64,000 nt of DNA from Patescibacteria group bacterium (GCA_041651155.1 JBAZJU010000001.1:27932-91931), one strand, 5' to 3'. Positions 18,450 through 51,029 are shown, numbered from the stretch's first letter. Made by a program: numbers and translations. Notes: generated by a model from the letters alone, not told the origin.

Positions 18450-19754
18450 TTAATCAATTTTTTTAATATCAGCGCCCAAGGAAGAATTTAATCTGTCAGC
18501 AATATTTTCATAACCGCGGTCAATCGGATAAGAATTTCGTAAAATAGATTCGCCTTTAGCTGCCAACATGCAAATGAGCAAGTTAATTGATGGCCTCAGG
18601 GCTGGCGGGCAAATAACTTCAGCTGGTAAAAGTTCTGTTGGGCCAGTAACTAAAATGCGATGAGGATCAAGCAGAGTAATATTGGCGCCCATGCGCTTTA
18701 ATTCAATCGCATAAATCAAACGGTCTTCATAAACCCAGTCATGGACCAGGGTTTGTCCCTCGGCTTGGGTTAGAATGGGAATAAATATTGGCAGATTATC
18801 AATATTTAAACCAGGATAAGGTTGCGGATGGATTTTATCTGGTAAGGCAGTCAGTTTGGACGGAAAGATTTCAATATCAACTAAATCAAAAAATCCATTT
18901 TTAGATTTATAAATCTGGCTTAATTCAAATTTTTGGCCCATCACTCGTAATTTTTCTAATTCCAGACTCAGAAAATCAATGGGGCAATTGGTTATTTTAA
19001 AATTTGACTTAGTGGTAATGGCAATGGCCATAAAAGCCATGGCTTCAATCGGATCAGGCATGATTGGATAATCTGTCACTGGATTTAATTTCTCTACGCC
19101 CGTGATGGTTAGTTTTTTTGTGCCAATGCCGGAAATATTGGCGCCAGCCTGGTTTAGAAAATGACATAAGTCCTGGACCATGTAATTGGCAGAAGCAAAA
19201 TTAATTTCTGTTGTGCCAGGAATTAAGCAGGCTGCCATAATTGTATTTTCAGTGGCTGTATCGCCTGATTCATACATGGTAAATGAAGCAGCCTGGCGAT
19301 GTTTAGAATTAATTTGATATTCGCCATCTGATTCTTTTACTTCAATTTTTAAATGGTCAAAAGCAATTAAATATGGATTAACTGTTCTTTTGCCAAGTTT
19401 GCAGCCGCCTGCTTTGGGCATGGAAAATTTTTCCAGTTGGCTAGATAAAGCACCCATTAATAGCAGGGCAGAACGTGTTTTACAAAATGATTCTTTGTTG
19501 ATTTTTTCTGGCAGTAGATTGCCATTATTGGTTATTTCTAAACTATGTTCATTCAGCCATTTTATTTCTAAGCCAAGTGAAGTCAGGATTTCAATAATTC
19601 TTTTAACCTCTTCAATGGCCGGCACATCAATTAAAGTTGTTTTGCCTGGGATCATGGCTGTGGCGCACAAAATCGCTACGGCTGAATTTTTCGCCGAGTT
19701 GGTCTTGATTTCACCTTGTAATTTTTTTCCGCCGTTGACTAAGAATGTAGACAT
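18450..19754 (-). CDS. murA: UDP-N-acetylglucosamine 1-carboxyvinyltransferase
   Basis: 434 aa. N-terminus LVNGGKKLQGEIKTNSAKNSAVAILCATAMIPGKTTLIDVPAIEEV is the MurA/EPT-family signature. Confidence 0.85.
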   Translation of the reverse strand: MSTFLVNGGKKLQGEIKTNSAKNSAVAILCATAMIPGKTTLIDVPAIEEVKRIIEILTSLGLEIKWLNEHSLEITNNGNLLPEKINKESFCKTRSALLLMGALSSQLEKFSMPKAGGCKLGKRTVNPYLIAFDHLKIEVKESDGEYQINSKHRQAASFTMYESGDTATENTIMAACLIPGTTEINFASANYMVQDLCHFLNQAGANISGIGTKKLTITGVEKLNPVTDYPIMPDPIEAMAFMAIAITTKSNFKITNCPIDFLSLELEKLRVMGQKFELSQIYKSKNGFFDLVDIEIFPSKLTALPDKIHPQPYPGLNIDNLPIFIPILTQAEGQTLVHDWVYEDRLIYAIELKRMGANITLLDPHRILVTGPTELLPAEVICPPALRPSINLLICMLAAKGESILRNSYPIDRGYENIADRLNSSLGADIKKID

Positions 19755-19824
19755 AATAAAAGTTTAAGATAAAATTATTGTAGCTTATTTTGGGAGTTTT
19801 GGCAATCGTGATAATTGGTTGAGG

Positions 19825-19854
19825 CCGCCGCCCCGACGTACGTCGGGGCGGCGG
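19825..19854. repeat. 30-bp perfect GC-rich palindrome CCGCCGCCCCGACGT|ACGTCGGGGCGGCGG
   Basis: Exact reverse-complement symmetry. Lies in the divergent region between murA and the 19934 gene, in an AT-rich context. Confidence 0.6.
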
Positions 19855-19933
19855 TCACTTTAAATTTGTAATTTTTTTTATGACATGATAAGTTAAATAA
19901 AATCAGAACTTTATATTTCAAAAGGAGGAAGGG

Positions 19934-20404
19934 ATGAAAAAAAATAATTTTTGGCTTGTTTTGGTTCTGTTAGCTGCAGTAGCAATCGGTCTGGGGTTGA
20001 GTGTTCTTAGGGAGCATTACGTACAATATAAGTACCACCAGCAATATTGCGAAGAGTTGTTGGATAGCTCAGCCCCTAACACTGGTTATCCAAAAAACTA
20101 TAGTGCCATGCGCCAGTATTATCACTGCGTACTGTCGCTTAATGAAGATGTGAATTGCTATCAAAAATACCGTCAGGAAATAATCGATTGTCAGCAATCG
20201 AGCAAAGAAAAGATGTCAGAGGAAGAAATAAAACGCCATTTAGCTGGCGGAGCCATTGAAGAAATTTGTCAGGACACTGCAAAATTATGCACCGAGAGCC
20301 AAAAGGAATTTACCGGTGATGAAGATTTAAAAAAAGCAATGCTAATACTTTGCATAGAAAAGACCAGGAAAGCCTGCACTGACCTAGGCATTGAATGGAA
20401 ATAA
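19934..20404 (+). CDS. small secreted/membrane-anchored Cys-rich protein, family copy A
   Basis: 156 aa. N-terminal TM or signal segment with 8 Cys. The C-terminal half is near-identical to 26056..26520. Confidence 0.5.
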   Translation: MKKNNFWLVLVLLAAVAIGLGLSVLREHYVQYKYHQQYCEELLDSSAPNTGYPKNYSAMRQYYHCVLSLNEDVNCYQKYRQEIIDCQQSSKEKMSEEEIKRHLAGGAIEEICQDTAKLCTESQKEFTGDEDLKKAMLILCIEKTRKACTDLGIEWK

Positions 20405-20444
20405 AAATAGCCCCGTTATAACAAACGGGGCTTAATTTTTTTGA

Positions 20445-21179
20445 TTAGTTGAATTTAATCTTGTCGCGATATTTTGGATCTATGCTTTCCCGGAAAACCT
20501 TGGGAAAATATGGTTTTAGCTTCTGGTAAAAAGAAACGTCCGTTTTCATTAAATCCTCAAATGTTGCCAGGGAGGTTGCTGTTTTAAGGTCAACGTGGAA
20601 AAGCTCCATTAATTGGCAAACATTAGGATTAGTCTGCTTTAAAAAATTATTTTTTTGAGCAAAAGATGTTTCTGCCAACTTAGCGCCATCTTCGTCAAGG
20701 TAAACAATCTTCGTGCCTTCTTCTAATGAGATTGTTTTCTCTTTTTCAGGACTGATTTTAATGTCATGGTAAATATGATAGTGCTCATGGACTAGTACGC
20801 ACCAGAGTTCTTCCTGTCTAGCCGTTTGAAAAGATCTGAGGCTGATTTCCAGAGTTTTATTTTTAGGATCATATTTTGCTGGTACTTTCATTACTCCGGT
20901 AATAATGCCCAAAGTTAATTGGTTGTTATTGAGCAGATCATAATAGTCAGCTTTGACTTTTGCATCAGGCAAAGTATCCAGAGCATGGTAAAAAGGCTCG
21001 CTGGCCGCTTCCATCTGACTTTGATTATGGGAGAGATAGATTATGCCCCCAAAAATAATAACAATAATGGGAATAGACACATAGAAAATTTTGTTGCTTT
21101 TTGTCTGGCAACTGCAATTTTTGATTTTTTGCCTGCATTTGGGACACTTGTTGTTTGGTGATTTTTTCACTTTAATCAC
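20445..21179 (-). CDS. membrane-anchored putative zinc metallopeptidase (N-terminal zinc ribbon, TM, HExxH motif)
   Basis: 244 aa. Contains CPKCRQKIKNCSC, a TM segment, and VLVHEHYHIYHD (HExxH). Confidence 0.5.
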   Translation of the reverse strand: MIKVKKSPNNKCPKCRQKIKNCSCQTKSNKIFYVSIPIIVIIFGGIIYLSHNQSQMEAASEPFYHALDTLPDAKVKADYYDLLNNNQLTLGIITGVMKVPAKYDPKNKTLEISLRSFQTARQEELWCVLVHEHYHIYHDIKISPEKEKTISLEEGTKIVYLDEDGAKLAETSFAQKNNFLKQTNPNVCQLMELFHVDLKTATSLATFEDLMKTDVSFYQKLKPYFPKVFRESIDPKYRDKIKFN

Positions 21180-21284
21180 TCCTTTCTAAATAGATTTTGT
21201 CAAAGGACTTAATAGTCCTAAATGTTTAATATTAGCAATAAAATGAGAAAAAGTCAAGGGTAATGTAATGATATGTAATAATAA

Positions 21285-21317
21285 ATAAATCCCAATCATT
21301 TTTGACTGGGATTTTTT
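21285..21317 (+). promoter_or_regulatory. conserved leader hairpin + U-run (copy 1 of 3) upstream of Cys-rich secreted protein genes
   Basis: aATCCCAatcatttttgacTGGGATttttttt. Near-identical copies at 25933-25963 and 26923-26952. Each lies 90-110 nt upstream of a paralogous gene start. Confidence 0.4.
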
Positions 21318-21396
21318 TATCACACTTGTAAAAATTTTTCATTGATGATATTTTGAAATAAATTAGTTTGAAGGTATTCTTTTAACAAAGGAGGAA

Positions 21397-21831
21397 ATGA
21401 TGGAAAAATTTGCGTCTAAGACAATCTTGGTTCTAATTATTTTAAGCTTGGGAGGATTTATTTTAATTTTTTCTGTAAAAGATTCCCCCCAATTTGACAG
21501 CCAGAAACAAATTAACCAGAAAGTAAATATTCTTTCTGAACAAGAAAAATGTGAGACATCGTTGTCGTCCTTAACCCAAAAAAGACCCTTTTGCCAAGAT
21601 TTGAATTTTTGTCCTGAACCATGCTGGCCAGAACTCAGAGCAGAAATTACTCATTGTTTACAATTAAAAGGGGAATCTGTTAACCCTGAAAAGATCGAAG
21701 GATATTTAAAAAATAATTTTCCACCTGCATGGTTCGCAGAATCAAGAGCAGCTTGTAAAAGTTGGGCTAAAACAGATCAGGAGCTCAAAGACTGTTTGCG
21801 TGGCTATGAGCAAACTTGTTCAAAAAAATAG
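21397..21831 (+). CDS. small secreted Cys-rich protein
   Basis: 144 aa. N-terminal TM or signal segment, 9 Cys. RBS AAAGGAGGAAATG. Confidence 0.5.
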   Translation: MMEKFASKTILVLIILSLGGFILIFSVKDSPQFDSQKQINQKVNILSEQEKCETSLSSLTQKRPFCQDLNFCPEPCWPELRAEITHCLQLKGESVNPEKIEGYLKNNFPPAWFAESRAACKSWAKTDQELKDCLRGYEQTCSKK

Positions 21832-21893
21832 TGCTTCTTATTATAAAGAGCCAATACCCCATAAAAATTTGGGGTATTTTTTTATTACAATCA

Positions 21894-21922
21894 TTGACTT
21901 ATTGAAAATTTTGCGCTAAGAT
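21894..21922 (+). promoter_or_regulatory. sigma70-like promoter TTGACT-17 nt-TAAGAT inside a duplicated ~85-nt promoter/RBS module (copy 1)
   Basis: Module 21893-21985 is near-identical to 27503-27595. Confidence 0.45.
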
Positions 21923-21990
21923 TGGATATTAAAATCAAAAAAAATTGACGTACCTTGAAAGGAGGTTAAAAAAGTGAAAAGAAAGGCATA

Positions 21991-22269
21991 GTGCTCGATG
22001 GTTGCAATTGTGCTATCTCGCACATGACCCTGCTTCCAAATGGAACTGTTTATGCGTGCCGACGATTCGATAGTCTGGTTGGCAACATATTTGAACAAAG
22101 CTTTAAGGAAATATTCTTGTCTCCAGAAATGGATAAATATCGCCAGGTGGAGAAACTATCTGGTTGCGCAAAGTGCGACCTCCTGTATTATTGTAGAGGG
22201 TGCCATGCAGTTGCAGCCGGTACAACTGGTGATTTTTTTGACAAAGATCCCCAATGTTGGCGAAGTTAG
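21991..22269 (+). pseudogene. radical-SAM enzyme remnant: SPASM/twitch-domain-only ORF lacking the radical SAM core
   Basis: 92 aa. GCNCAISHM...YACRRFDSLVGNIFEQSF...SGCAKCDLLYYCRGCHAVA matches the C-terminal SPASM Cys pattern. There is no upstream CxxxCxxC core. The upstream GTG at 21975 is followed by a stop. Confidence 0.5.
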
Positions 22270-22332
22270 TATTTAAGCGGTAGCAAAATATAGTGCTATC
22301 GCTTTTTTAACATTTTAGATATAATAAAAAAT

Positions 22333-22935
22333 ATGAAATACAATAATATTTATAAACAAAATCAAAAGGTTTGGGGTCAGGAACCCAATAAGCTCCTGCA
22401 AATGATTTGGCAAAAAGTAAAGCCCAAATCATATTTCTTAGATTTGGGTTGCGGACAGGGGCGGGATTCAGTTTTTATGGCCAAACAAAGATTTAAAGTT
22501 GTGGCTATTGATGAATCTAAAGAGGCAATTGAGCAGTTAAGGGCAAGGGCTGTCAAAGAAAATTTAAAAATTGAAACAATTTGCCAGAGCATTGCGGATT
22601 ATAAAATTGTCAAAGATAAATTTTCAATCATAAATGCCTATAATATTTTTCAATTTTTGGATAAAGGCAAGACAGGGGAGATTATTGATAGCATTAAAAA
22701 AAATTTAAAGCCTGCTGGTTATGCAATAATTTCTGGCTTTACTGTTAGTGATTCCTTATATTTAAAGCAGGAAAATAAATCTAAGGGATATTTTAGCACC
22801 GATGAATTAAGGGAATTATTTAATAATTTTGAAATTATATTTTACTTTGAGGGAGAAATTGTAGATAAAGGACATGCGGGTGCGAATTTAACGCATAAAC
22901 ACAATGTTGTGCGGATAATTGTCAGAAAATTTTAA
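22333..22935 (+). CDS. class I SAM-dependent methyltransferase (TehB/TPMT-like)
   Basis: Motif I FLDLGCGQGRDSVFMA and an acidic motif II VVAIDES. Confidence 0.7.
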   Translation: MKYNNIYKQNQKVWGQEPNKLLQMIWQKVKPKSYFLDLGCGQGRDSVFMAKQRFKVVAIDESKEAIEQLRARAVKENLKIETICQSIADYKIVKDKFSIINAYNIFQFLDKGKTGEIIDSIKKNLKPAGYAIISGFTVSDSLYLKQENKSKGYFSTDELRELFNNFEIIFYFEGEIVDKGHAGANLTHKHNVVRIIVRKF

Positions 22936-22941
22936 TACTAT

Positions 22942-23415
22942 ATGCTAGAAGATATTAGAATAAAATTAGTTACCAAGCTTAATGATTCACAAATAAGACA
23001 ACTTGTTCGTATTTTAAATTATGACAAAAAATTAAATCAGAGTTTAGGTAATAAAAAAAATAAAATTACAGTTAAACAGTTTAAATCTAAAAATAAAGCT
23101 TGGGCAAAAGATAATCAGGCAAAAATGTTTGCCATTATGTATAAAAACCGGGCTATTGGCATGATTTCATTAAGCCATATTAATTTAAAGGATAAAAAGG
23201 CAAATATCGGATATTGGTTAACCAGTAAGCATTGGGGAAAGAGTATTACTACTGAAGCGTTTAAACAAGTATTAGCAATCGCCAAAAGAAATAAAATAAA
23301 ATATGTTTCTTGTACAATAGCTAAAAACAATAAATCCTCTTTGGGTATCTGGCAAACATATCGGGCTAGTATTAAAAGAAATAGAGACAATATAATACCG
23401 CTTATTAAGTTGTGA
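22942..23415 (+). CDS. GNAT-family N-acetyltransferase (RimJ/RimL-like)
   Basis: 157 aa. IGMISLSHINLKDKKANIGYWLTSKHWGKSITTEA has the GNAT fold pattern. Confidence 0.7.
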   Translation: MLEDIRIKLVTKLNDSQIRQLVRILNYDKKLNQSLGNKKNKITVKQFKSKNKAWAKDNQAKMFAIMYKNRAIGMISLSHINLKDKKANIGYWLTSKHWGKSITTEAFKQVLAIAKRNKIKYVSCTIAKNNKSSLGIWQTYRASIKRNRDNIIPLIKL

Positions 23416-23473
23416 ATGTTATTTAATTTTCCATTTTTGGTATCAGGATATATAATATTTACAGTAACGGCTT

Positions 23474-24295
23474 ATGAAAGATAAATTTAATAAAATTTTT
23501 AATAAAAATAAAAACATAGTTATCGGAGCAATTCATTTTCCTCCGCTTTTAGGATATCCTGATTTTCCCGGGTTGGAAATTGCAATAAGTAATGCTTTAA
23601 ATGATTTGAAGACCTTTGAGCAAGGCGGTGTTGACACTGTAATTTTTGAAAATAATTATGATTTGCCGCATAAAGAATTTGTTGAACCAGAAACAGTGGC
23701 AGCTATGACATTTTTAGGCACCAAATTAAAAGCAGCAACTGCATTACCCTTAGGAATTAATGTTTTATGGAATGATTACAAAACTTCCTTGGCCATTGCT
23801 AAAATTTTAGGTTTGAAATTTATACGTGTGCCTGTCTTTGTGGATGAAGTAAAAACCGATTACGGCGTGATTAAAGGCGACCCGCAGACAATTCGCAATT
23901 TTCAGAAATCAATAGGTGCTGATGAAGTAGCTTTATTTACTGACATTCATGTTAAACATGCCGAATTATTATCTAAATTATCCCTCGTTGAATCGGCGAA
24001 ATTAGCGATTGCTAATGGCAGTGATGCCGTTATTGTTACGGGCAAGTGGACTGGCGATGCACCCGATTATGGGGAACTAGAATTATTAAGAAATAATATC
24101 GGCGATTTTCCTTTAATCGCTGGAAGTGGTTGTAATAAAGATAACATTAAGGAAGTTTTTAATTATTGCAATGCTGCAATTGTGAGCACGGCATTAAAAG
24201 AGGGAGAAGTTACAAAAAAGGAGATTAATTTAAAAAATTGGATGCAGAGAATAAGCGAAAATAAAGTAAAAGAGTTTATGAAAGCAATAGTTTAA
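23474..24295 (+). CDS. BtpA/SgcQ-family TIM-barrel protein
   Basis: IVIGAIHFPPLLGYPDFPGL...GGVDTVIFENNYDLPH matches the BtpA family N-terminal signature. Confidence 0.65.
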   Translation: MKDKFNKIFNKNKNIVIGAIHFPPLLGYPDFPGLEIAISNALNDLKTFEQGGVDTVIFENNYDLPHKEFVEPETVAAMTFLGTKLKAATALPLGINVLWNDYKTSLAIAKILGLKFIRVPVFVDEVKTDYGVIKGDPQTIRNFQKSIGADEVALFTDIHVKHAELLSKLSLVESAKLAIANGSDAVIVTGKWTGDAPDYGELELLRNNIGDFPLIAGSGCNKDNIKEVFNYCNAAIVSTALKEGEVTKKEINLKNWMQRISENKVKEFMKAIV

Positions 24296-24338
24296 GAGTA
24301 AGAGAAGATTTATATTAAAAATAAATAATATACACATA

Positions 24339-25280
24339 ATGACTAAAACAACAGAATTTAATAATGTATTTGAAATACTAATTTATTATGAGTTGAGTGA
24401 AAATGGTCCTGTTCATATTATGCGTGAATCTGGTGATAACAAAGTATATCTTATCGGAGAGAAAGATAAAAAGATATTACGTGTAAGTAAACGGTTACCA
24501 ATAGAGGATGTTCAGTTTGAATATGAAGTTTTAAAGCATCTCGCTAATAATAATTTCCCAGTTCCAGTGTGGGTCAAAACAAAAGAGGGTGCTTTATACG
24601 CATCTATAGCAGGTGTTGCCGTAGCTGTTATGTTTGAATTTTTGGAAGGTTATCACGCTCCTGTTAATAAAGATATTTTACCAGCAATAGAACAAGCACA
24701 CAGTGCTGGACGAGCTTTAGGATCTATGGCTGAAATTGGTAAAACCTTTAAATCGTCGTCTTTTCGTCGAAGAAATATATTCAGTGAATTAGAGAGAGTT
24801 CTACAAAACGAGGAAATTTTCAAGAATGATTTTGAAGGAGGGGATACTTTTGTTGAGCAAGTAAAACAAGTTATTAAATTTGGTCAGGAAGCTCAAACTT
24901 CAATTGGACTTATCCACAATGATTATCGATCTGGAAATGTCTTTTTCAAAAATGACAATGAGATTAGCGGGGTCATAGACTTCGATTGGAGTTGCATAGG
25001 CCCCCACATAAAAGATCTTGGACTGGCAGTGTTAGAATGGTCCTTTTCTGATGGTCAAACTGAGCCTGACTTTACAGTATTTGATGCGTTTTTAGATGGG
25101 TATAATTCAATATCGACGCAAAAATATACAAAAGGTAAAGAATTATATTTATGGATAATGTTTGCTGCATTGTCAGACGCCTCAACTTATTTTTGTGACA
25201 GATTAAATCAGCCTAATTTGGTAAAAGATATTTCTTCTTCACATATGTACCAGAAATATCTTTTCTTTTCAAAATTATAA
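24339..25280 (+). CDS. phosphotransferase-family kinase (APH / homoserine-kinase-II-like)
   Basis: Catalytic loop LIHNDYRSGNV and IDFDWS motif (protein-kinase-like fold). Confidence 0.55.
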   Translation: MTKTTEFNNVFEILIYYELSENGPVHIMRESGDNKVYLIGEKDKKILRVSKRLPIEDVQFEYEVLKHLANNNFPVPVWVKTKEGALYASIAGVAVAVMFEFLEGYHAPVNKDILPAIEQAHSAGRALGSMAEIGKTFKSSSFRRRNIFSELERVLQNEEIFKNDFEGGDTFVEQVKQVIKFGQEAQTSIGLIHNDYRSGNVFFKNDNEISGVIDFDWSCIGPHIKDLGLAVLEWSFSDGQTEPDFTVFDAFLDGYNSISTQKYTKGKELYLWIMFAALSDASTYFCDRLNQPNLVKDISSSHMYQKYLFFSKL

Positions 25281-25334
25281 AAAAGAAATCAATGTCATTA
25301 AAAAACAAAGTAAATTACTAAAAACAATAAATTT

Positions 25335-25883
25335 ATGAACAATAAAAAGGAAATAGAGTTCAGAGGCATCTTGGGGAAAAAACAATATTTTGATCTACTA
25401 AAGAAATTGATTTCACGCGGCTATGCCCATGAAAAAGATGATAAAATTTCATATTTTTTTGTGCGCAAAAAAGGGATATTTAAAATAAATGATGAAATTT
25501 CTAAAAACCAAGCTAAAATATCCTTAAAACTTGGTGATGAAGAGAATGGCAAATTGTATGAAAGCGAAGTCTCTCTTGATCGACGTCACTTCAACGATTT
25601 GCTATTTATTTTTCAAAAACTTGGATTTACAAAATATCATAAAGTTGAACAAAAAAGAGACAACTTCTTGTTAAAAGATTTTGACGTTGAACTTTCGCTT
25701 AAATATACGCTTGATTTTCAATATCATTTTGAAATTGAATATTTGGGTAACAAAATAAAATCTGAAAATAAAATTAAAAAATACTTAAAAGAAGTATGTG
25801 ATAAATTTAATATAGTACCTTTAGAAGAAAAGGAATTATTACAGAGAATTCAAGATATTAAGAAGAAACATCGGTTGCACTAA
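25335..25883 (+). CDS. CYTH-domain protein (CyaB / thiamine-triphosphatase-like), putative
   Basis: N-terminal EIEFRG plus alternating acidic and basic beta-strand pattern. Weak call. Confidence 0.4.
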   Translation: MNNKKEIEFRGILGKKQYFDLLKKLISRGYAHEKDDKISYFFVRKKGIFKINDEISKNQAKISLKLGDEENGKLYESEVSLDRRHFNDLLFIFQKLGFTKYHKVEQKRDNFLLKDFDVELSLKYTLDFQYHFEIEYLGNKIKSENKIKKYLKEVCDKFNIVPLEEKELLQRIQDIKKKHRLH

Positions 25884-26055
25884 GAGCTTATAGATATCAT
25901 TTTAGAAGTTTAGTTTATTATAAAAGACTAATTTTTAATAAAATTCCAATCATTTTTGACCGGGATTTTTTAAACCCACTTGCAATAATTTCAGATAGAT
26001 GGTAATTTGAAATAAATTCAGTTCTAAAATCTAATAACTTAACAAGGAGGAAAAA

Positions 26056-26520
26056 GTGAAGAAAAAGATTGCTCTGGTGATAGTAATCGTCCTAATAATT
26101 AGCACCTTGCTTTTACTCAAACAAAAATATCAAGAGTACAAATATAGAAAGCATTACTGTGAATTATTATTAAACGGTTCCGATCCTTACCGAGGCTTCC
26201 CTAAGGGTTATGCCATCCGTCAGTACTATCATTGCATCATGTCTGATCAAGCTTATAGAGAAAATACCAATTGTTACCAGCAATATCGCCAGGAAATAAT
26301 TGATTGTCAGCAATCAAGTGAAAAAAAGATGTCAGAAGAAGAGATAAGGCGGCATTTGACTGGCGGAGCAATGGACGAAATTTGCCAGGATACTGCAAAA
26401 TTATGCACCGAGAGCCAAAAGGAATTTACCGGTGATGAAGATTTAAAAAAAGCAATGCTAATCCTTTGCATAGAAAAGACCAGGAAAGCCTGCACTGACC
26501 TAGGCATTGAATGGAAATAA
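26056..26520 (+). CDS. small secreted/membrane-anchored Cys-rich protein, family copy B (GTG start)
   Basis: 154 aa. The C-terminal roughly 40 aa and 3' flank are about 97% identical at the DNA level to 20278-20590. Confidence 0.55.
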   Translation: MKKKIALVIVIVLIISTLLLLKQKYQEYKYRKHYCELLLNGSDPYRGFPKGYAIRQYYHCIMSDQAYRENTNCYQQYRQEIIDCQQSSEKKMSEEEIRRHLTGGAMDEICQDTAKLCTESQKEFTGDEDLKKAMLILCIEKTRKACTDLGIEWK

Positions 26521-26560
26521 AAATAGCCCCGTTATAACAAACGGGGCTTAATTTTTTTGA

Positions 26561-26703
26561 TTAGTTGAATTTAATCTTGTCGCGATATTTTGGATCTATG
26601 CTTTCCCGGAAAACCTTGGGAAAATATGGTTTTAGCTTTTGGTAAAAAGATATGTCTGTTTTCATTAAATCCTCAAATGTTGCCAGGGAGGTTGCTGTTT
26701 TAA
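26561..26703 (-). pseudogene. 3' fragment of a HExxH metallopeptidase gene (truncated copy of 20445..21179)
   Basis: Encodes ...KTATSLATFEDLMKTDISFYQKLKPYFPKVFRESIDPKYRDKIKFN. Homology ends abruptly at about 26700 at a TTAA microhomology junction. Confidence 0.6.
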
Positions 26704-26900
26704 CCAGTAAACACTGGGGAAAGGGTATTACTACTGAAGCATTTAAAAAAATATTAGTCATTGCCAAAAGAAATAAAATAAAATATGTTTCTTGTACTAT
26801 ATCCAAAAATAATAAATCCTCTTTGGGCATCTGGCAAACATATTGTGCTAGAATTAAAAGAAATAAAGATAATATAATACCGTTTATAAAGTTGCGATGA
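26704..26900 (+). pseudogene. 3' fragment of a GNAT acetyltransferase gene (truncated copy of 22942..23415)
   Basis: Encodes LTSKHWGKGITTEAFKKILVIAKRNKIKYVSCTISKNNKSSLGIWQTY...IPFIKL, homologous to residues ~92-157 of the intact GNAT. Confidence 0.55.
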
Positions 26901-27013
26901 TAATTTATTTTTTAAAGAAAAAATTCCAATCATTTTTGCTGGGGTTTTTATATTTGCTTTTTTCCTAATAAAATAGTAAATTAAAACAAAACTTGTTCTT
27001 CAAAGGAGGAGAA

Positions 27014-27460
27014 ATGAGAAAAAATATATTTCTGTGTATTCTTTGCTTTTCTTTGGTATTTCTGGCCGGAGGGAAAAAAACCGAGACAGACGAGCTTGAA
27101 GAGCTGATTTTATCATATAAATCACAAGGCGTGTCTATCTCAAAGGAAGAATTTTGCCAAGATTATCTTGATTATGTGTCCCAAAGAGAATATCTGCACT
27201 GCGGCCTAGCACCTAATCAGGTTGATTGCCAGTCCTATGTGATTAAGATGACTAAGCTATGTTTAAAAACGAAAGGACTGGAGCCAAACAATGATAATGT
27301 AGATAAAGTCATGGCAAAATTTTTAAGCGAAGATATCTTTTGCGAATTTTTGCAAAAGAAAATTAACGAGGTGAGCACTGAATCTGAGAAAGACGTCCTT
27401 AATATGTTAAAGGTGCAGTTTGAAACCGCAGCGAAAAAAAAGGTTAATTGCGCCAAATAA
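27014..27460 (+). CDS. small secreted Cys-rich protein
   Basis: Start at ATG 27014 after CAAAGGAGGAGAA. Signal peptide MRKNIFLCILCFSLVFLAGG. 9 Cys. Confidence 0.5.
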   Translation: MRKNIFLCILCFSLVFLAGGKKTETDELEELILSYKSQGVSISKEEFCQDYLDYVSQREYLHCGLAPNQVDCQSYVIKMTKLCLKTKGLEPNNDNVDKVMAKFLSEDIFCEFLQKKINEVSTESEKDVLNMLKVQFETAAKKKVNCAK

Positions 27461-27505
27461 ATCAATTTACCCTGATAATCTCAGGGTATTTTTTTGCACA
27501 AACCA

Positions 27506-27534
27506 TTGACTTATTGAAAATTTTGTGCTAAGAT
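27506..27534 (+). promoter_or_regulatory. sigma70-like promoter TTGACT-17 nt-TAAGAT, duplicated module copy 2
   Basis: Near-identical to 21894-21922, with the same downstream RBS AAAGGAGGTGAAAAAAGTG. Confidence 0.45.
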
Positions 27535-27585
27535 TGGATATTAAAATCAAAACGAATTGACGTACCTTGAAAGGAGGTGAAAAAA

Positions 27586-28371
27586 GTGAAAAAGAAGCAA
27601 AGGATGAAGAGGCAATTAGATAAGCGCTCAAAATTCAAGAATTCTGCCATCCCTGTAAGTAAAACACAAAATCCAAGTAAAAGAAAAAGCATATATTTAT
27701 TGGTAGTTATATTCTGCGTCTTAGCGCTTGGCTTGATCTTGACAATAGTAAAAAGCGCAAATGCACCAGTAAATAAAGACACCACAGAGATCGGGTCGCA
27801 ATTGGAAGGCAAGGCAGCGATTGATAGATTTATGCAATTGCTTGCCAGTTTGCCAGACGATGATGCCCGCAACAACCTTTATGAGCAGATAAGCCGGAGA
27901 GGCTTAAGGTTAGAGCCTTATTCAGGCGAATATGTTATGGAATTCAAACCAAAGATTTCTGTTCTACGGTTTAATCCAGGCATACTTTCTTATCAAGAAG
28001 GTTACATCTGGTCGTATATGGTTCATGAAAATAGGCATATTGAAGATTGGCAAAATAAGCATGAGTCAGGCAAACTGTACTTGCCCTGCGAGATGGAAAG
28101 ATATATTTCCCATCAATGTAAAATAGAATGGTGGGAGGCTGAATTCAGGGCAGTTCAACAGCAAACGATTTTTCTGAAAAAAAATAATTTGGCGCAAGCC
28201 ATGCCTACTGGCCCCAGGGTAAATAATCGGGCAATATTTGAAAATAATAATGTTCGCCTGGCTGCGCTGATATTCTTACGGAATAATTATTATGAAAGTA
28301 AATCGCGATCACCTGATCTGCTGGAAGTTTTTCCGGAATTTTACGCAAAAAAATTAGCTGAAATCAGCTAG
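27586..28371 (+). CDS. membrane-anchored putative zinc metallopeptidase (HExxH), paralog of 20445..21179
   Basis: N-terminal basic region plus a TM segment. Contains MVHENRHIEDW (HExxH) and CxxxxC/HQC motifs. Start GTG 27586 (track ORF starts at 27577). Confidence 0.5.
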   Translation: MKKKQRMKRQLDKRSKFKNSAIPVSKTQNPSKRKSIYLLVVIFCVLALGLILTIVKSANAPVNKDTTEIGSQLEGKAAIDRFMQLLASLPDDDARNNLYEQISRRGLRLEPYSGEYVMEFKPKISVLRFNPGILSYQEGYIWSYMVHENRHIEDWQNKHESGKLYLPCEMERYISHQCKIEWWEAEFRAVQQQTIFLKKNNLAQAMPTGPRVNNRAIFENNNVRLAALIFLRNNYYESKSRSPDLLEVFPEFYAKKLAEIS

Positions 28372-28493
28372 CAGATAAGCACTAAGTTTGAACTTGGTGC
28401 TTTTTTTATTTACCCTTGACATGTATTTTTATAGTTTTGTTTAATTGAATATAATATGTTATAATTTTTAAATAAATTTAACTAATATACAAA

Positions 28494-29204
28494 ATGAAAA
28501 AAATTTTGTTAATACAAATCAGAGATAATAAAATAATTGCGGATCATGAATTTCAATGTTTTAAAAAAGCAACCCAAGGAGAGAAAATTAACCTTGAGCG
28601 AGTTAATATTTATTTCCAGGATTTTTCGCCTGATAAAATTATTAAGAAATATAATGGATTTTTAACTGGGGGTAGTAATTTTTCAATTAAAGATAAATTT
28701 CCGCGCAAGGCTAAGCTTTTTAAATTAGTTAAAAAAATAATTGAGCGGGAAAAACCATTTTTAGGAATTTGTTTTGGTTTTCAGGTTTTAGTGGAAGCAG
28801 CTGGAGGCAGGGTGATTTTTGATAAGAAAAAAGAGGAATTTGGGAGTAAAATTGTTTATTTAAATAACCAAGGCAGACAAGATAAGCTTTTTGAAAATTT
28901 GAAGCGAAAGTTTTATGTACAGCAGGGACATGAATGGCGCGTAGCTAAATTGCCCACTGATATGCTAAGACTGGCGAGTGGCAATGCAGTTTTAAATCAA
29001 GCAGTAAAGATAATTGATACTCCAGTTTATGGCATCCAATTTCATCCCGAACTTGATAAAAAAGCAATGTTATGGCGGTTAAATTTATATAAAACCAGTC
29101 AGGTATCTTGGTATAGTTTTAAGAAAAATCCATTCCATAAATTATTGCCGACTTCTTCCAGCAAGAAAGTTTTAAGTAATTTCATTAAGCATATAGTTAA
29201 ATAA
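28494..29204 (+). CDS. type 1 glutamine amidotransferase-like protein
   Basis: Nucleophile elbow FLGICFGFQ and catalytic GIQFHPE. Confidence 0.65.
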   Translation: MKKILLIQIRDNKIIADHEFQCFKKATQGEKINLERVNIYFQDFSPDKIIKKYNGFLTGGSNFSIKDKFPRKAKLFKLVKKIIEREKPFLGICFGFQVLVEAAGGRVIFDKKKEEFGSKIVYLNNQGRQDKLFENLKRKFYVQQGHEWRVAKLPTDMLRLASGNAVLNQAVKIIDTPVYGIQFHPELDKKAMLWRLNLYKTSQVSWYSFKKNPFHKLLPTSSSKKVLSNFIKHIVK

Positions 29205-29337
29205 AAATTTATAATTTAATTTTAAAGACTGCTAATGCAGTTTTTTTATTCTATCTTGACTTTTTCCATTTTTCGTGTATAATTAGTAAATTGCGGTTAA
29301 GCAATCAGTACGTTTAAAATTGAAAGGAGGTGAGGGA

Positions 29338-30507
29338 GTGAATCTGAAAAAATTCACTAATTTATTCAACTTTGATACTCAGAAAAAAATGTTTCTGGGT
29401 ATTGAGGAGGAATTCTGGCTAACTGATTCAAAAGGTTTTTTAGTTAATAGAGCAGTTAGCCTCTTGCATGAAGCAGCCAAAGAAAAATTGAATCTTAATT
29501 GGAGCAGAAAAGAATTTCTCAAAGATATCTGGAAAAAGGGGACAAAAGGTGTTTTAAATAATTTGCGTTTAAGTGTAGGTTTGCAGCCGGAATTACCATT
29601 ATCACAGATTGAAATAAACACCAACCCCTGCCCTGATTTTAAATCTTTGGAAATTGATCTGCTGGCACAAAGAGGTTATTTGTTCTTCTTAACCGAAAAA
29701 GAGAAAATAAAGGTGTTGCCAACTGCAACACCATTATATCCTTTTGCGGCGAAAATTTTCCCGCTTCCTTATTATCAAAAAGTCCAGGAAATTTTTGCTG
29801 ATAAAATCAAAAAGGGTTTTATCTCTGGCCAACATATCCATATCGGAGTGGCAGATGAATCAGAGGCGATCAAGGTCTTCAATCTCTTGCGAGAGTATTT
29901 GCCAATTTTTCTGGCTCTTTCTACAAATTCCCCTATATCAGAAGGGACTTCAACTTCGCTGCATTCAGCCCGATATTTCAAATATAGGGTGGTGGCTGGG
30001 CAAGTAATTCCCAATCCCGTCTTATCGTGGAAGGATTATTATGGCACGCTAGAAAAAATGATGTGTCTGGACGATCCGACCAGAAACTGGAAAATACTGC
30101 GCATCCATCCTTATGGCACGGTTGAAATTCGTGTCTCTGATATCCAGCTCACTGCCAAGGAAGCGATTTTTTTGGCAGTCATCGCTAAAGTGTTGGCTTT
30201 TTTAGCCCTTAACTCCAGTTACAATCAACAATTTTCCAGTTTGGAATCAATGGAGAGTAGTTTATTAAGGTCCGCAGTCTACGGGTTGTCCAGTCAAGAG
30301 CTAAGGCAATCAATCATAAAGGCTCTTAGTAAATTAACAGCCATTGCCAAAGAAATGGAGATTGGTGAAATCTGGCAAAGAGTTTTGGAGTGGGTTAAAG
30401 AAGGATCAAACGGATCGCAACGCCAGCTCAAATATCTGGCTTGGGCGAAAAATGATCCTGAAAAACTCTTTCAGCTAATCAATAATGAGTTCATAAATGA
30501 ACTTTAG
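29338..30507 (+). CDS. glutamate--cysteine ligase family 2 / carboxylate-amine ligase (YbdK-like)
   Basis: LGIEEEFWLTD and GQHIHIGV motifs. GTG 29338 after AAAGGAGGTGAGG (track ORF starts at TTG 29320). Confidence 0.6.
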   Translation: MNLKKFTNLFNFDTQKKMFLGIEEEFWLTDSKGFLVNRAVSLLHEAAKEKLNLNWSRKEFLKDIWKKGTKGVLNNLRLSVGLQPELPLSQIEINTNPCPDFKSLEIDLLAQRGYLFFLTEKEKIKVLPTATPLYPFAAKIFPLPYYQKVQEIFADKIKKGFISGQHIHIGVADESEAIKVFNLLREYLPIFLALSTNSPISEGTSTSLHSARYFKYRVVAGQVIPNPVLSWKDYYGTLEKMMCLDDPTRNWKILRIHPYGTVEIRVSDIQLTAKEAIFLAVIAKVLAFLALNSSYNQQFSSLESMESSLLRSAVYGLSSQELRQSIIKALSKLTAIAKEMEIGEIWQRVLEWVKEGSNGSQRQLKYLAWAKNDPEKLFQLINNEFINEL

Positions 30508-30569
30508 TAGCATCTATTCGCAGGTGCTACTTTTTTTATATTTTTATTGAGTTGATTATGATTTTATTC

Positions 30570-30598
30570 TTGACAGACAATGAAATTTGCAGTATTAT
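30570..30598 (+). promoter_or_regulatory. sigma70-like promoter TTGACA-17 nt-TATTAT
   Basis: Consensus hexamers upstream of the 30674 gene. Confidence 0.4.
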
Positions 30599-30673
30599 TT
30601 ATTAAATCGGTAAGCAAATATGTTTAAGAAGTGGCGCACTTTAAATTTTAGAAAAAAGAAAGGAGTTCTTTAA

Positions 30674-30913
30674 ATGGAAAAAGATAATTCCCCAAGAGCC
30701 TATGGCCTAGTAGTGAAAATTCTTCGGTTAAAAGCATTTTTACGAAGAATTTTTAAAACTTGTATTTTGGTGTTGGACAGAGTCATTAGACTGGTTGTAA
30801 TCGCAGTAACACACCCGTTCGCCTTTTTTTGCGGGACATTTATTTTACTGAGTGCACAGCTTTATGGCCTCATACGCCGTAACGTGTTGTATCTAAAAGA
30901 TGAGGACTTCTAG
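30674..30913 (+). CDS. small membrane protein, hypothetical
   Basis: 79 aa. RBS GAAAGGAG. One or two TM segments. Confidence 0.35.
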   Translation: MEKDNSPRAYGLVVKILRLKAFLRRIFKTCILVLDRVIRLVVIAVTHPFAFFCGTFILLSAQLYGLIRRNVLYLKDEDF

Positions 30914-31076
30914 GCGAGTGTTCTCATCACATTTTAAGGAATTAGCCCCAAAGAAATAATTATAAAGATCTGCAAACGCAGGTCTTTTTTTTATTTATAG
31001 TTACATAATTTTTCTAAATTATGGCCCTTGACTTTTGCGAAAAATATGTTCTAGTATGGTATGCCCCCATACCCCC

Positions 31077-31105
31077 TTGACAGCGCATCAAAGTGGTGGT
31101 ATCAT
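31077..31105 (+). promoter_or_regulatory. sigma70-like promoter TTGACA-17 nt-TATCAT (a second TTGACT-18-TAGTAT lies just upstream)
   Basis: Tandem consensus promoters upstream of the 31181 gene. Confidence 0.4.
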
Positions 31106-31180
31106 TCACTAAATTGGGTCGCAAACCCTTTTATGCTTCAGTAGAAGCATTGAACGTTGAAAAAAAGAGAGGAGGCCAAA

Positions 31181-36840: not shown

Positions 36841-37001
36841 CTTACCTCCTTTTTGTTGTCAAAAAACGTTAGTTAAAATCAACTATAATTATATTTCAGA
36901 ATTTTAAAGTATAGCAATAATTAGGCATAAAGTCAATAGTAGCACTGGTAAATATTTTTTGCGACTTAAAAAAATTGCTTTTTTAGAGCAATTTTTTTTG
37001 A

Positions 37002-37075
37002 TGGGCGCTGGAGGGATCGAACCCCCGACCTACTCGGTGTAAACGAGTCGCTCTAACCAGCTGAGCTAAGCGCCC
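37002..37075 (-). tRNA. tRNA-Val (anticodon TAC)
   Basis: Reverse-complement folds as GGGCGCT/AGCGCCC acceptor, anticodon stem ACTCG/CGAGT with loop TTTACAC, and T-arm GGGGG TTCGATC CCTCC. Confidence 0.8.
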
Positions 37076-37211
37076 TGGAATAACTAATAACTTATAACTA
37101 TAACAATAACTCTTGGTATGCGCTTAGCGAAGCTGGTTGCCGTCCGTAAATACTTTAATTCACAACTGCCTGCCTGCCGTAGCTTTAGCGAAGGCAGGAG
37201 CTAAGCGCCCT
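37076..37211 (-). repeat. tRNA-Val-leader repeat unit A (136 nt)
   Basis: Minus-sense begins GGGCGCTTAGCTC, the first 13 nt of tRNA-Val(TAC). It is followed by the hairpin CCTGCC-TTCGCTAAAGCTACG-GCAGG, then GCAGGCAG, then the box AACCAGCTTCGCTAAGC. Confidence 0.5.
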
Positions 37212-37376
37212 AGAATAACTAATAATTTATAACGATAACAATAACTTTTGTAAGGAGCTTAGCGAAGCTGGTTATCACCCATAAATACATACTAACCAAA
37301 CTGCCTGCCTGCCGTAGCTTTTTTATCCGCCGAAGCTTTAGCGTAGGTGGAAGCGAAGGCAGGAGCTAAGTGCCCT
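37212..37376 (-). repeat. tRNA-Val-leader repeat unit B (165 nt), with nested mini-hairpin insertion
   Basis: Begins GGGCACTTAGCTC. Same architecture as unit A, plus an extra CCACCTACGCTAAAGCTTCGGCGG element inserted in the hairpin loop. Confidence 0.5.
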
Positions 37377-37482: not shown

Positions 37483-38190
37483 TTAATTTATATTATCAAG
37501 TATATTAAAAATTTTCAAGCGTTTTCTTCGTAAACATGGTATTTTATCTGAATAATAAATTTTTTTTAGTAAAATTTTCGATTCATTCTTGGCATATTTT
37601 AGTTGATATATTGTAGATTTTTTGGCATGAGTAATGTGCCCATTTAGATTAATAATTTGTTTGATACTTTTCCTTAACCATAAAATATGTTGTTTGCTTG
37701 CAGACACGAAAGTCGTATAAAACATTAAACTTGATTTCCAGCGTTTATCCCAATAAGAATAAAAGGAACCATCTCCATCAAAGTGACCTCTTAAAAAATC
37801 AAAAAAATATTGTTTAGGAATTTTTATGTCATTTAATATTTTCGTTTTGTTTGGCATTAACCCTATGCTTAATAAGAATTTATAAAAATTAACATCCCCA
37901 AATTGAATTACATAATATTTTTTTATTTTATTTCCACCCCGCGATTTTTTACCAATTTTGTTCGTTAATTTTAATATTTTTTTGAATTTTAAAACAAGCT
38001 CTTTGTCCTTAGATGTAAAGTGAATGTGCCTCTTATCAGATGAAAGATTTCCATCGGTTGTAATTAGTCCAATAATATAGGCAAACTCTGGAGCCCATTT
38101 AATTAAAATTTTTGATTGTGGTTTTGACATAATTATCTCAAATTCAAAGCGTCTGCCAATTTTATTATATAATATTTTTACTCTTAACAC
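37483..38190 (-). CDS. LAGLIDADG-family homing endonuclease (two-motif, free-standing)
   Basis: Two LAGLIDADG motifs: FAYIIGLITTDGNL and FLRGHFDGDGSF. Stop codon is 8 nt from the tRNA-Leu 5' end. Confidence 0.75.
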   Translation of the reverse strand: MLRVKILYNKIGRRFEFEIIMSKPQSKILIKWAPEFAYIIGLITTDGNLSSDKRHIHFTSKDKELVLKFKKILKLTNKIGKKSRGGNKIKKYYVIQFGDVNFYKFLLSIGLMPNKTKILNDIKIPKQYFFDFLRGHFDGDGSFYSYWDKRWKSSLMFYTTFVSASKQHILWLRKSIKQIINLNGHITHAKKSTIYQLKYAKNESKILLKKIYYSDKIPCLRRKRLKIFNILDNIN

Positions 38191-48226: not shown

Positions 48227-48583
48227 TTAACTGCCAGCATACTTGAAGTTGATTCCCCAAGCGTGTTTAGCGACGGTGACGTTGCCGTCAACCATTAATG
48301 TGCTCTGGTTGGTGAAATCCGGCAGCCAATGGTTGGTGTTTGGAAGATGAACTGCAAATTCACAGCCCGGAGTCATGTCTTTTTTGTTGATTTTGATTGT
48401 CCCCTGGCCTACGCCCATCATTTCCCATTCACTGGTTTTGCAGTCGCCATAAAGTACCCATTGATCATGTTTGTCCAGATTTATCTGGATCGTCTCGGTG
48501 GACTTTTTGTGGGCGAAGAAAAACAAGCCAGAAAGAGTCGTTACCGAAATGACAATAGCGAACACTAACACGATTTTTTTCAT
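48227..48583 (-). CDS. cassette ORF 1: small secreted protein, hypothetical
   Basis: 118 aa. N-terminal signal or TM segment. Confidence 0.45.
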   Translation of the reverse strand: MKKIVLVFAIVISVTTLSGLFFFAHKKSTETIQINLDKHDQWVLYGDCKTSEWEMMGVGQGTIKINKKDMTPGCEFAVHLPNTNHWLPDFTNQSTLMVDGNVTVAKHAWGINFKYAGS

Positions 48584-48736
48584 TCTTTTTCCTCCTAGAA
48601 AAATTTTTACTTTTTCAAAAGGGCAAAGCCCTTTACTATCCTCGTCTCAAGATGAAATATTTTAATATTACATCCTGGGATGAGGCGGGCGATCTTTTTA
48701 GACCGCCCGCGGTTTTGTTTGAATTAAGAATACAGA
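48584..48736 (-). repeat. conserved intergenic cassette module, copy 1
   Basis: Shares the hairpins GGGCAAAGCCC and CGTCTCAAGACG, plus the GC-rich hairpin GCGGGCGGTC..GATCGCCCGC, with four other copies. Module ends in the RBS AGGAGGA. Confidence 0.55.
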
Positions 48737-49498: not shown

Positions 49499-49648
49499 TC
49501 TTTCCTCCTTGGAAATTTTTGTATTTACTTTTCAAAAAGGGCAAAGCCCTTTACTATCCTCGTCTCAAGACGAAATAATTTACTCGAAACTATTCCGTCC
49601 TGGGATGAGTGGGGCGATCTTTGCAGACCGCCCATAAGCTGGTTTTGT
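49499..49648 (-). repeat. conserved intergenic cassette module, copy 2
   Basis: Near-identical to copy 5 (51621-51772). Confidence 0.55.
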
Positions 49649-50227: not shown

Positions 50228-50373
50228 TTGTACATTTTCCTTTTTCGTTTCTGAATTTTTGAAAGAGCAAAGCTCTTTTATTTTCCTCATCTCAAGACAA
50301 AATAATCTACACGAGACCATCCTGTCCTGAGATGAGGGGGGATCGGAAGATCCCCTGTATGAATTTGCCGATG
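50228..50373 (-). repeat. conserved intergenic cassette module, copy 3
   Basis: Variant with AGAGCAAAGCTCT hairpin and GGGGGGATCG..GATCCCCT hairpin. Confidence 0.5.
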
Positions 50374-50826: not shown

Positions 50827-51029
50827 CTTTCCTCCTTTGAAATTTTTTTAAAGAGCATAGCTCTTTTTCTATCCTCGTCTCAAGACGAAATGATCTACTA
50901 GAGACCATCCCGTCCTGAGATGAGGGGGGATCGTTGGATCCCCTATGTCGCGGGCGATCTTCGTTAAGACCGCCCGCGAGCTTTGTCAGCGATTGCTACA
51001 CATCGCAAAGGGTTTCTTAATTTAAAACC
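50827..51029 (-). repeat. conserved intergenic cassette module, copy 4
   Basis: Carries both the GGGGGGATCG-type hairpin and the GCGGGCGATC..GACCGCCCGC hairpin. Confidence 0.5.

Follow-up and report, generated by a model that had tools for sequence, protein, structure and literature searches.

RESULTS

Cys-rich and HExxH genes in the window

The stretch of DNA that we analysed, 64,000 nt from a Patescibacteria group bacterium and hereafter called the window, carries under the locus tags WC460_00225-00270 the genes of a four-gene module, in which a Cys-rich gene (CysA) is convergent with a gene for an HExxH protein (HExxH-A), and another Cys-rich gene (CysB) is followed by HExxH-B. Four Cys-rich genes are present: CysA1 (WC460_00225; 19934-20404, plus strand), CysB1 (21397-21831), CysA2 (WC460_00265; 26056-26520, plus strand) and CysB2 (26993-27460), the last of which precedes HExxH-B. 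All four encode small proteins with exactly eight cysteines each and an N-terminal hydrophobic anchor. CysA2, the paralogue of CysA1, is intact, with 154 aa, and is predicted to be all-alpha. One intact gene of each HExxH type was found as well, both for membrane-anchored proteins. HExxH-A (WC460_00230; 20445-21179, minus strand) encodes an N-terminal Cys4 ribbon, a transmembrane helix and a domain with the motif HEHYH, and HExxH-B (27577-28371, plus strand), its distant paralogue, has the motif HENRH. Public gene calls for HExxH-A (244 aa) and CysB2 (155 aa) use other start codons. The two HExxH proteins share 27% identity over 149 aa, and CysA1 and CysB2, likewise distant paralogues, share 23% over 139 aa. 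CysB1 and CysB2 are only 18% identical at the amino acid level although their flanks are 75-91% identical, and to have genes this close to unrelated within conserved flanks requires either allelic replacement or very fast evolution.

Searches of Pfam and NCBIfam gave no significant match for any Cys-rich or HExxH protein (SprT appeared at E = 0.09). H131, E132 and H135 are invariant in the HExxH proteins, and the AlphaFold model of HExxH-A (pLDDT 84) has a weakly zincin-like fold, for which the best Foldseek matches in the PDB were selecase, jannalysin, IrrE, BlaR1 and Spartan, with E-values of 0.03-0.7 only. For CysA, the PDB search yielded no fold match. The HExxH family is very rare, comprising 20 clusters (50% identity) at E <= 0.001 among 1.84 billion representative proteins, and an alignment search with HExxH-A in a genome contig collection without the close kin of the window returned no match. 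Relatives of the module were likewise not found in a viral contig collection, so nothing ties it to phages. The region was also considered as a compositional island and rejected as such, the GC content being 0.31-0.37 over 18-30 kb and 0.33-0.47 elsewhere.

A repeated block within a longer homology

The first-pass annotation had noted that 20278-20590 recurs at 26396-26703. This is indeed the case: 20276-20587 and 26392-26703 are identical at 307 of 312 positions. However, the left limit that it set at 20278/26396 is too narrow, since the homology extends at lower identity back to about 20040/26150. In a self-BLAST of the window, 20104-20587 aligned with 26211-26703 at 89.9% identity over 493 bp. 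The two copies are direct repeats with a spacing of 6116 bp, and a base-by-base comparison at this fixed offset gave 26 mismatches in 20150-20275 (79% identity) and five mismatches in 20276-20587 (20347, 20523, 20535, 20537 and 20541; 98.4% identity). The block includes an exact core of 175 bp (20348-20522, equal to 26464-26638). The bases next to the core tell the copies apart, with A at 20347 and C at 20523 in copy 1 and C at 26463 and T at 26639 in copy 2. Leftward, identity falls to the 79% just given and then to about 51% in the N-terminal part of the two full-length CysA genes.

Analysis of ORFs and hairpins agreed with the earlier description of the block, in which a terminator is bounded by the 3' ends of a Cys-rich gene and an HExxH gene. 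In copy 1 (R; 20104-20587, plus strand) the terminator separates the 3' part of CysA1 from the 3' end of HExxH-A, which is intact here. Its paralogous counterpart, copy 2 (R'; 26211-26703, plus strand), comprises the 3' two-thirds of CysA2, the terminator and an HExxH-A remnant. Within the 98.4% identical part lie the final 43 codons of the Cys-rich gene and, on the minus strand, the final 47 of the HExxH gene, with a bidirectional, intrinsic-terminator-like hairpin between them (26525-26548, common to 20409-20432).

Junction of HExxH and GNAT gene remnants

At about 26700 the homology was reported to switch to a GNAT gene through the tetranucleotide TTAA, and a three-way comparison of the junction bears this out. 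The HExxH source reads GCTGTTTTAA followed by GGTCAAC, the mosaic reads GCTGTTTTAA followed by CCAGTAAAC, and the GNAT source reads TTGGTTAA followed by CCAGTAAGC. The junction, J2, thus comprises 4 bp of TTAA microhomology (26700-26703) leading from the HExxH-A remnant to the GNAT remnant. For 200,000 random breakpoint pairs simulated from the region, the probability of sharing at least 4 bp was 0.029, a value to be read with the divergence of the sources since the event in mind.

Two 3' gene remnants do meet at this joint, as had been stated, namely the last 47 codons of the HExxH gene and codons 93-157 of the GNAT gene. They are not facing fragments, as the earlier description had it: their truncated 5' ends abut at J2 and their reading directions diverge. 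The HExxH-A remnant (26561-26703, minus strand; 47 codons and the stop) is identical to 20445-20587 at 139 of 143 positions, with the four mismatches clustered at 26639-26657. Two chimeric ORFs run across the joint. One, of 82 aa (26652-26900, plus strand), consists of 16 codons antisense to the HExxH remnant followed by the GNAT remnant, and is annotated as a gene by JGI and ENA. The other, of 81 aa (26561-26806, minus strand), begins antisense to GNAT and continues into the C-terminus of HExxH-A; it is the NCBI hypothetical protein WC460_00270. Protein searches with either ORF found no homologues beyond this contig.

A transposable element or MITE was rejected as the origin of the structure. 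There is no inverted repeat of at least 30 nt in 19000-29500, no transposase domain was found among ten scanned ORFs of 19.9-28.4 kb, and TTAA occurs singly at the joint instead of flanking an insert. No Rfam family matched 19.0-29.5 kb at E <= 0.1.

The GNAT remnant

On the right side of J2, 26700-26911 aligned with 23218-23430 at 87.8% identity over 213 bp in the self-BLAST. The GNAT remnant (GNAT'; 26700-26900, plus strand) starts from the acetyl-CoA loop WGKGIT and had been described as the 3' third of the gene; with 65 of 157 codons it is really about two-fifths. It covers only positions 87-131 of 138 of the Pfam model (PF13302/PF00583). Since codons 1-92, and with them the N-terminal half of the fold, are missing, the remnant does not contain a complete GNAT fold. 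Its original stop codon has mutated from TGA to CGA, which adds one codon. The right edge of the piece, junction J3, is at about 26900-26915, just past the stop codon and just upstream of t'', a degenerate terminator-like element (26906-26949, plus strand; other copies at 21283-21315 and 25937-25969), and in this it resembles a native gene end.

The intact GNAT acetyltransferase gene (22942-23415, plus strand) is a paralogue of the remnant and not its direct source. Over the 65 codons compared, the two sequences have only 21 differences, from which we estimate dS at 0.37, dN at 0.064 and dN/dS at 0.17. The differences comprise 11.5 synonymous changes per 39 sites and 9.5 non-synonymous changes per 156 sites, a synonymous excess with p about 1e-4. 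When polarised with the outgroups L012 and L013 (for these and other related contigs, see below), four changes fall to the intact gene, seven to the remnant and ten are ambiguous. The remnant has kept the ancestral WGKGIT and KQIL-type residues, which are changed in the intact GNAT. Because the differences are mainly synonymous and changes occurred on both branches, GNAT' is probably the relic of a once-functional old paralogue and not a fresh copy of 23218-23415. No full-length GNAT' allele was recovered, and a protein search with the 66-aa remnant matched its own ORF only.

Support for the junction in a second assembly

Both CysA genes lie on one public contig of 348,259 bp (NCBI MAG, Patescibacteria group bacterium). 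In the MEGAHIT assembly ERZ27247363 the same DNA is distributed over three contigs, all 100% identical to the window: one ends at window position 20488, one spans 20382-26604 and one (k141_799758, or L003) starts at 26498, so that J2 lies 203-206 nt inside it. Each of these breaks is located exactly 141 nt into the 175-bp core, which is where a k=141 de Bruijn graph must break if a repeat truly occurs in two copies with different left and right flanks. The exact repeat accounts for the breaks at 20.4 and 26.5 kb in short-read assemblies of this genome. Further to the right, a Logan contig from run SRR8542065 is 100% identical to 27564-31173. J2 itself is found in unique sequence, 65 nt outside the exact core. 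Its two sources have only 4 nt in common, which is far below any assembler k and too little for an assembler to have made the joint. It is flanked on the left by four copy-specific mismatches within 65 nt (26639-26657) and on the right by 12% divergence. A chimera of reads would match its sources exactly, whereas the GNAT piece is 12% different. Judged from these contigs, J2 is a genuine joint and not an assembly artefact.

The middle contig of ERZ27247363 (L001) leads out of copy 1 and into copy 2, which implies that the linear chromosome passes the repeat twice. The pairing of the repeat copies with their left and right flanks comes from a single source, the 348-kb public contig. It might be argued that on the true chromosome the GNAT remnant directly follows CysA1 and that the 6.1-kb segment is a circle, an amplification or DNA of another strain, the more so as two paths enter and two leave the core in the k=141 graph of ERZ27247363, in ambiguous order, and as the adjacency in L006 is just such a "crossed" one, with a left flank of the CysA2 type and an intact HExxH gene on the right. 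We regard this arrangement as highly unlikely, given that L001 entails two passes through the repeat, barring a 6.1-kb circle without a replication gene, and that the public contig contains both CysA genes. The HExxH-GNAT joint, being in unique sequence, would remain under every resolution of the repeat.

Related contigs and the ancestral state at copy 2

A convergent CysA/HExxH-A pair is kept in all related contigs that were fetched (L005/L009, L006, L007, L010 and L011). Of these, L006 comes from JGI 3300032342 (Ga0315286) and L005 from 3300032163. The CYTH-like gene of L006 is 96.2% identical to that of the window at the DNA level (dS 0.12). In the window, the context of copy 2 is BtpA-APH-CYTH-CysA2, and the pair follows CYTH in L006 and BtpA in L007. 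The first-pass annotation had proposed a comparison with closely related strains, and in L006 this comparison revealed the pair at the copy-2 site, with an HExxH gene that runs 56 bp past the J2 point to the end of the contig (94.6% identical to 20588-20643). It follows that the lineage of the window truncated its copy. By extrapolation from these 56 bp, which bear on the left side of the joint only, L006 would have a complete HExxH-A'. Since L006 and L007 have CYTH or BtpA, then a Cys-rich gene, and then an HExxH gene past the J2 point, the CysA/HExxH-A pair appears to have its ancestral site at copy 2.

Other contigs show how the remaining genes are arranged. All four genes of the module are adjacent in L011, in the order CysB-like, HExxH-B, CysA, HExxH-A. 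A Lac Pavin Parcubacteria MAG (L012), whose synteny with the window extends between the M23 peptidase and the histidine kinase, has the order CysB2-like, HExxH-B, radical SAM/SPASM, GNAT. A radical-SAM gene also comes after HExxH-B in L030-L032.

A second scar in copy 1

The segment following CysB1 contains a second scar. Its left half (21872-21985, plus strand) consists of the promoter, the RBS, the GTG start and the first codons of HExxH-B, and is 91% identical to the HExxH-B start region at about 27484-27597. Its right half (21991-22269, plus strand) encodes a 92-aa SPASM fragment that matches positions 250-339 of 341 of TIGR04340 (rSAM_ACGX; E = 2e-39); the first ~250 residues are missing, and this ORF is a truncated gene. 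HExxH-B followed by a radical-SAM gene, as seen in L012 and L030-L032, corresponds in position to the SPASM fragment of the window. The fragment might be taken for the C-terminal part of a radical-SAM gene like those of L012, L005 or L030, but comparison with these genes gave no significant similarity; the synteny is thus positional only.

The losses of the two copies are reciprocal: copy 1 lost HExxH-B together with the first ~250 radical-SAM codons, and copy 2 lost HExxH-A. Between them, the copies still have all four Cys-rich genes and an intact gene for each HExxH type. The joint of the X element with the SPASM fragment, at about 21985, would fit a boundary of a tandem-duplication unit; the block order differs between the copies.

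An identity step and pieces of different age

The region 26392-26638 is a putative gene-conversion tract, having one mismatch in 247 bp relative to 20276-20522 (99.6% identity). At its left edge, identity rises abruptly from 79% to 99.6% inside a homology that continues, and the corresponding mismatch counts, 39 of 174 vs 5 of 310, differ with p = 4e-14. The C-terminus of CysA in L006, equivalent to the coding part of the tract, is only 60% identical to either copy in the window, so the identity of the tract does not result from constraint. As the step lies inside an older paralogous alignment, it points to gene conversion rather than to a new insertion of 310 bp. Homology of the two copies is present beyond the tract too, as gene conversion between paralogues requires.

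The HExxH remnant, its copy-1 counterpart and the L006 gene are mutually about 3% apart (dS 0.07-0.11), and this three-way divergence is similar to the CYTH divergence between the organisms of the window and L006. The pieces of the mosaic would therefore be of three ages, with GNAT' the oldest, the HExxH remnant intermediate and the conversion tract the youngest.

DISCUSSION

Proposed history of the locus

We consider it probable, if well short of certain, that two old copies of a rare four-gene module, both partly degraded, are present in the window and, jointly with this, that the older second copy lost most of two genes by deletion before some 250-310 bp of it were overwritten by gene conversion. 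Such a history would start with the module being duplicated long ago, possibly as a tandem array, into two copies that both had working genes. Copy 2 would once have contained a full HExxH-A' and, further right, a functional GNAT' with its terminator t'', followed by CysB2-HExxH-B; we infer the former functional GNAT' and the full HExxH-A' from the dN/dS of the remnant and from the relatives. After the split from the L006 lineage, a TTAA-mediated deletion would have taken away the 5' four-fifths of HExxH-A' and codons 1-92 of GNAT', together with the DNA between them. The joint and the fuller state in the relative are observed, and around them this mechanism and the content of the deleted interval are our reconstruction. 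The last event would have been a conversion between the direct blocks 6.1 kb apart, overwriting about 247-312 bp in a tract that spans the 3' end of CysA and the terminator and takes in the HExxH remnant partly or entirely. The tract would not reach beyond J2, since the homology ends there. While the identity step is seen directly in the alignment, the direction of the conversion, into copy 2, is a presumed one that the outgroups L005 and L006 do not polarise.

A difficulty for any simple version of this history is the block order, which is R-t-X-GNAT for copy 1, as opposed to R'-GNAT'-t''-X' for copy 2. A single duplication with a single internal deletion as the whole story is contradicted by it; the unlike orders call for a second junction (J3) or for an array that was larger in the ancestor, unless the GNAT piece is a templated filler (see below). 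The X element is 86-88% conserved in L030/L031, and its conservation is probably functional (promoter or 5' UTR) and not due to recent exchange.

Alternative explanations

The first-pass annotation took the mosaic as direct evidence of recent illegitimate recombination or duplication, that is, of one recent event in which ~310 bp (20278-20590) and ~200 bp (23222-23415) were joined at TTAA. Part of this description stands, namely the non-homologous joint at TTAA and the two 3' remnants, and it is also true that both sources lie within 6.5 kb in the same orientation. One recent mosaic copy is nevertheless very unlikely. The halves differ from their counterparts by 5 of 310 and 25 of 212 positions, a seven-fold gap in divergence (1.6% vs 11.8%; Fisher p = 1e-6), and in the GNAT half most differences are synonymous and both branches carry changes. 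Moreover, a 79% homology continues to the left of the block into a full-length paralogous gene, and L006 already has the pair at the copy-2 site. A more elaborate possibility is that the body of HExxH-A' (~685 bp) was replaced in a single replication template switch and that conversion came later. Here the ancestral unit would be a cassette CysA-HExxH-A-t-CysB-X, and the inserted GNAT piece a 205-bp filler from the GNAT gene 3.3 kb upstream. Such a templated insertion would agree with the colinearity of the copies for R, t, CysB and X, only the HExxH body being exchanged, as well as with a nearby donor on the same strand and the microhomology at the left joint. However, a neutral filler should have accumulated about 70% non-synonymous changes, as expected from site counts, vs 45% observed (dN/dS 0.17 over the 65 codons), and a filler does not explain why the piece ends so neatly after a stop codon and before a terminator, as a native gene does. 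We consider it unlikely.

It is extremely unlikely, in our opinion, that the fusion generated a new expressed small protein, be it the 82-aa product or WC460_00270. Both ORFs are open and are called genes by public pipelines, and the acetyl-CoA loop is kept in the GNAT remnant. On the other hand, neither chimeric ORF has a homologue beyond this contig, the N-terminal half of the GNAT fold is missing and the original stop codon is already mutated. The 82-aa ORF and WC460_00270 are best treated as chimeric relics and not as genes, and the HExxH-A and GNAT remnants are most likely non-functional.

Relation to known systems

In Salmonella chemostat cultures, deletions and duplications bounded by short direct repeats are common spontaneous rearrangements, and the verified junctions share at least 8 bp (PMC3411829). 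J2 differs from these junctions in sharing 4 bp only, which is modestly above chance (p = 0.03), and it differs from documented deletions in that no relative preserves the deleted interval. With spontaneous microhomology-mediated deletion, a RecA-independent form of illegitimate recombination in bacterial chromosomes, it shares the joining of unrelated sequences in direct orientation at a few bases and the truncation of both genes. As for conversion within a genome, the duplicate tuf genes of Salmonella and the pilS-to-pilE transfer in Neisseria are familiar examples. The proposed tract is similar to them in being short and near-identical, with a sharp edge, between direct repeats a few kilobases apart. 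Unlike in those systems, its end coincides with a deletion scar, and it is a pseudogene remnant that is kept "fresh" by hitch-hiking. The locus also has features of duplication-degeneration, in that each copy of the module lost a different member and one working gene per type is left. It departs from the simple form of that process because the Cys-rich partners are all kept and are far more diverged than their flanks.

We see in the feature nothing beyond ordinary genome decay through duplication, deletion and gene conversion, and the scar itself alters no open question. If the favoured history holds, the locus would provide a clean, datable case in a reduced Patescibacteria genome of duplication, reciprocal deletion and a conversion that rejuvenated a pseudogene; our literature search found no paper on gene conversion between paralogs in Patescibacteria.

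It is tempting to speculate that the scar is a by-product of cassette-type diversification of a rare extracytoplasmic pair, formed by an 8-Cys all-alpha protein and a membrane-anchored minimal zincin, but we think this quite unlikely. The Cys-rich genes are mosaic and hypervariable between near-identical strains: between the window and L006, CYTH is 96% and the C-terminus of CysA 60% identical, and the identity of L005 and L006 goes from 97% to 61% between adjacent segments. The hypervariable Cys-rich partner of a rare HExxH protein might merit a separate study, albeit with a low prior. If diversification did operate, recombination and gene conversion at t and X, the short conserved terminator/promoter elements on either side of these genes, could shuffle alleles among paralogues, as in antigenic-variation loci, and the 312-bp direct repeats could permit reversible loss or amplification of the 6.1-kb segment.

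A second gene junction and the module genes in related organisms

The window contains a second junction-truncated gene, at 21872-22269. Its left half consists of the promoter, RBS and start codon of HExxH-B, a gene for a membrane-anchored HExxH protein, and is 91% identical to 27484-27592. It is fused to a right half that encodes the C-terminal ~90 residues of an ACGX-type radical-SAM/SPASM protein, matching positions 250-339 of the 341 in TIGR04340. A 5-codon ORF at this scar ends in a TAG that overlaps the GTG of the SPASM ORF, which suggests that the fragment may still be translated.

In one relative (contig L011, 370-3610), the CysB-HExxH-B and CysA-HExxH-A pairs stand together in a four-gene cluster. 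In the Lac Pavin Parcubacteria MAG (L012, 7008-10474) and in contigs L030-L032, the genes downstream of HExxH-B are a radical-SAM gene and an ORF for a small Cys-rich peptide (226-3214 in L030, where the peptide ORF at 2426-2596 has the C-terminal end ...MICCDDGCDTMPGDC). This arrangement looks like a RiPP-type cluster. In L031, the place that CysB2 holds in the window, immediately upstream of HExxH-B's conserved promoter element, is taken by a minus-strand ORF of 302 aa (2-907), which on visual inspection resembles a DDE/rve-type integrase.

The CysA genes, which encode 8-Cys membrane-anchored proteins, are mosaics across organisms (19934-20404 and 26056-26520 in the window compared with 2242-2697 in L005 and 980-1429 in L006). 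Between L005 and L006 the N-terminal segment is 96.8% identical, whereas the C-terminal segment is only 61% identical; between L006 and the window the neighbouring CYTH gene is 96% identical, but CysA only 60-84%. These contrasts suggest either allelic replacement or diversifying selection.

Hairpins and repeated elements

Three of the four Cys-rich genes of the window are preceded by a short terminator-like hairpin element, AAATCCCAATCATTTTTGACTGGGATTTTTT (21283-21315, 25937-25969 and 26917-26949), and the promoter/RBS region that follows it is also similar (76% between 21287-21413 and 25941-26072). The related contig L006 has the element twice (177-209 and 858-946). In copy 1 of the module it sits between divergent genes, where there is no need for a terminator; a small ORF on the minus strand (21186-21323), conserved in L005, overlaps the element there. 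Another hairpin, GGCCGCCGCCCCGACGTACGTCGGGGCGGCGGTC, a perfect 15-bp one with 13 GC (19823-19856), is found in the AT-rich spacer that separates MurA from CysA1, which are transcribed divergently, and its composition is out of keeping with that spacer.

A 110-160-bp element recurs at 48577-48721, 49481-49649, 50227-50356, 50812-50944 and 51600-51768 (copies 76-92% identical). Each copy lies at the beginning of one of five successive minus-strand genes of unknown function (48227-51620) and in the sequence upstream of it. These genes form another cassette-like array, with conserved 5' ends; the GC content of the region, 0.42, is above the window average.

tRNA genes and sortases

Adjoining tRNA-Val(tac) is a tandem 124-bp duplication (37063-37186 and 37198-37321, 84%), and the region 36997-37321 resembles, in inverted orientation, that of tRNA-Val(gac) at 4.3 kb (4235-4449). 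A free-standing LAGLIDADG ORF (37483-38190) adjoins tRNA-Leu(gag). ARAGORN predicts a tRNA-Ile with the anticodon TAT at 4157-4229; this anticodon is uncommon in bacteria, AUA usually being decoded by a lysidine-modified CAT anticodon. Finally, two sortase paralogues (61444-62154 and 63090-63872) share 66% nucleotide identity over 430 bp, the second having an N-terminal peptidoglycan-binding domain.
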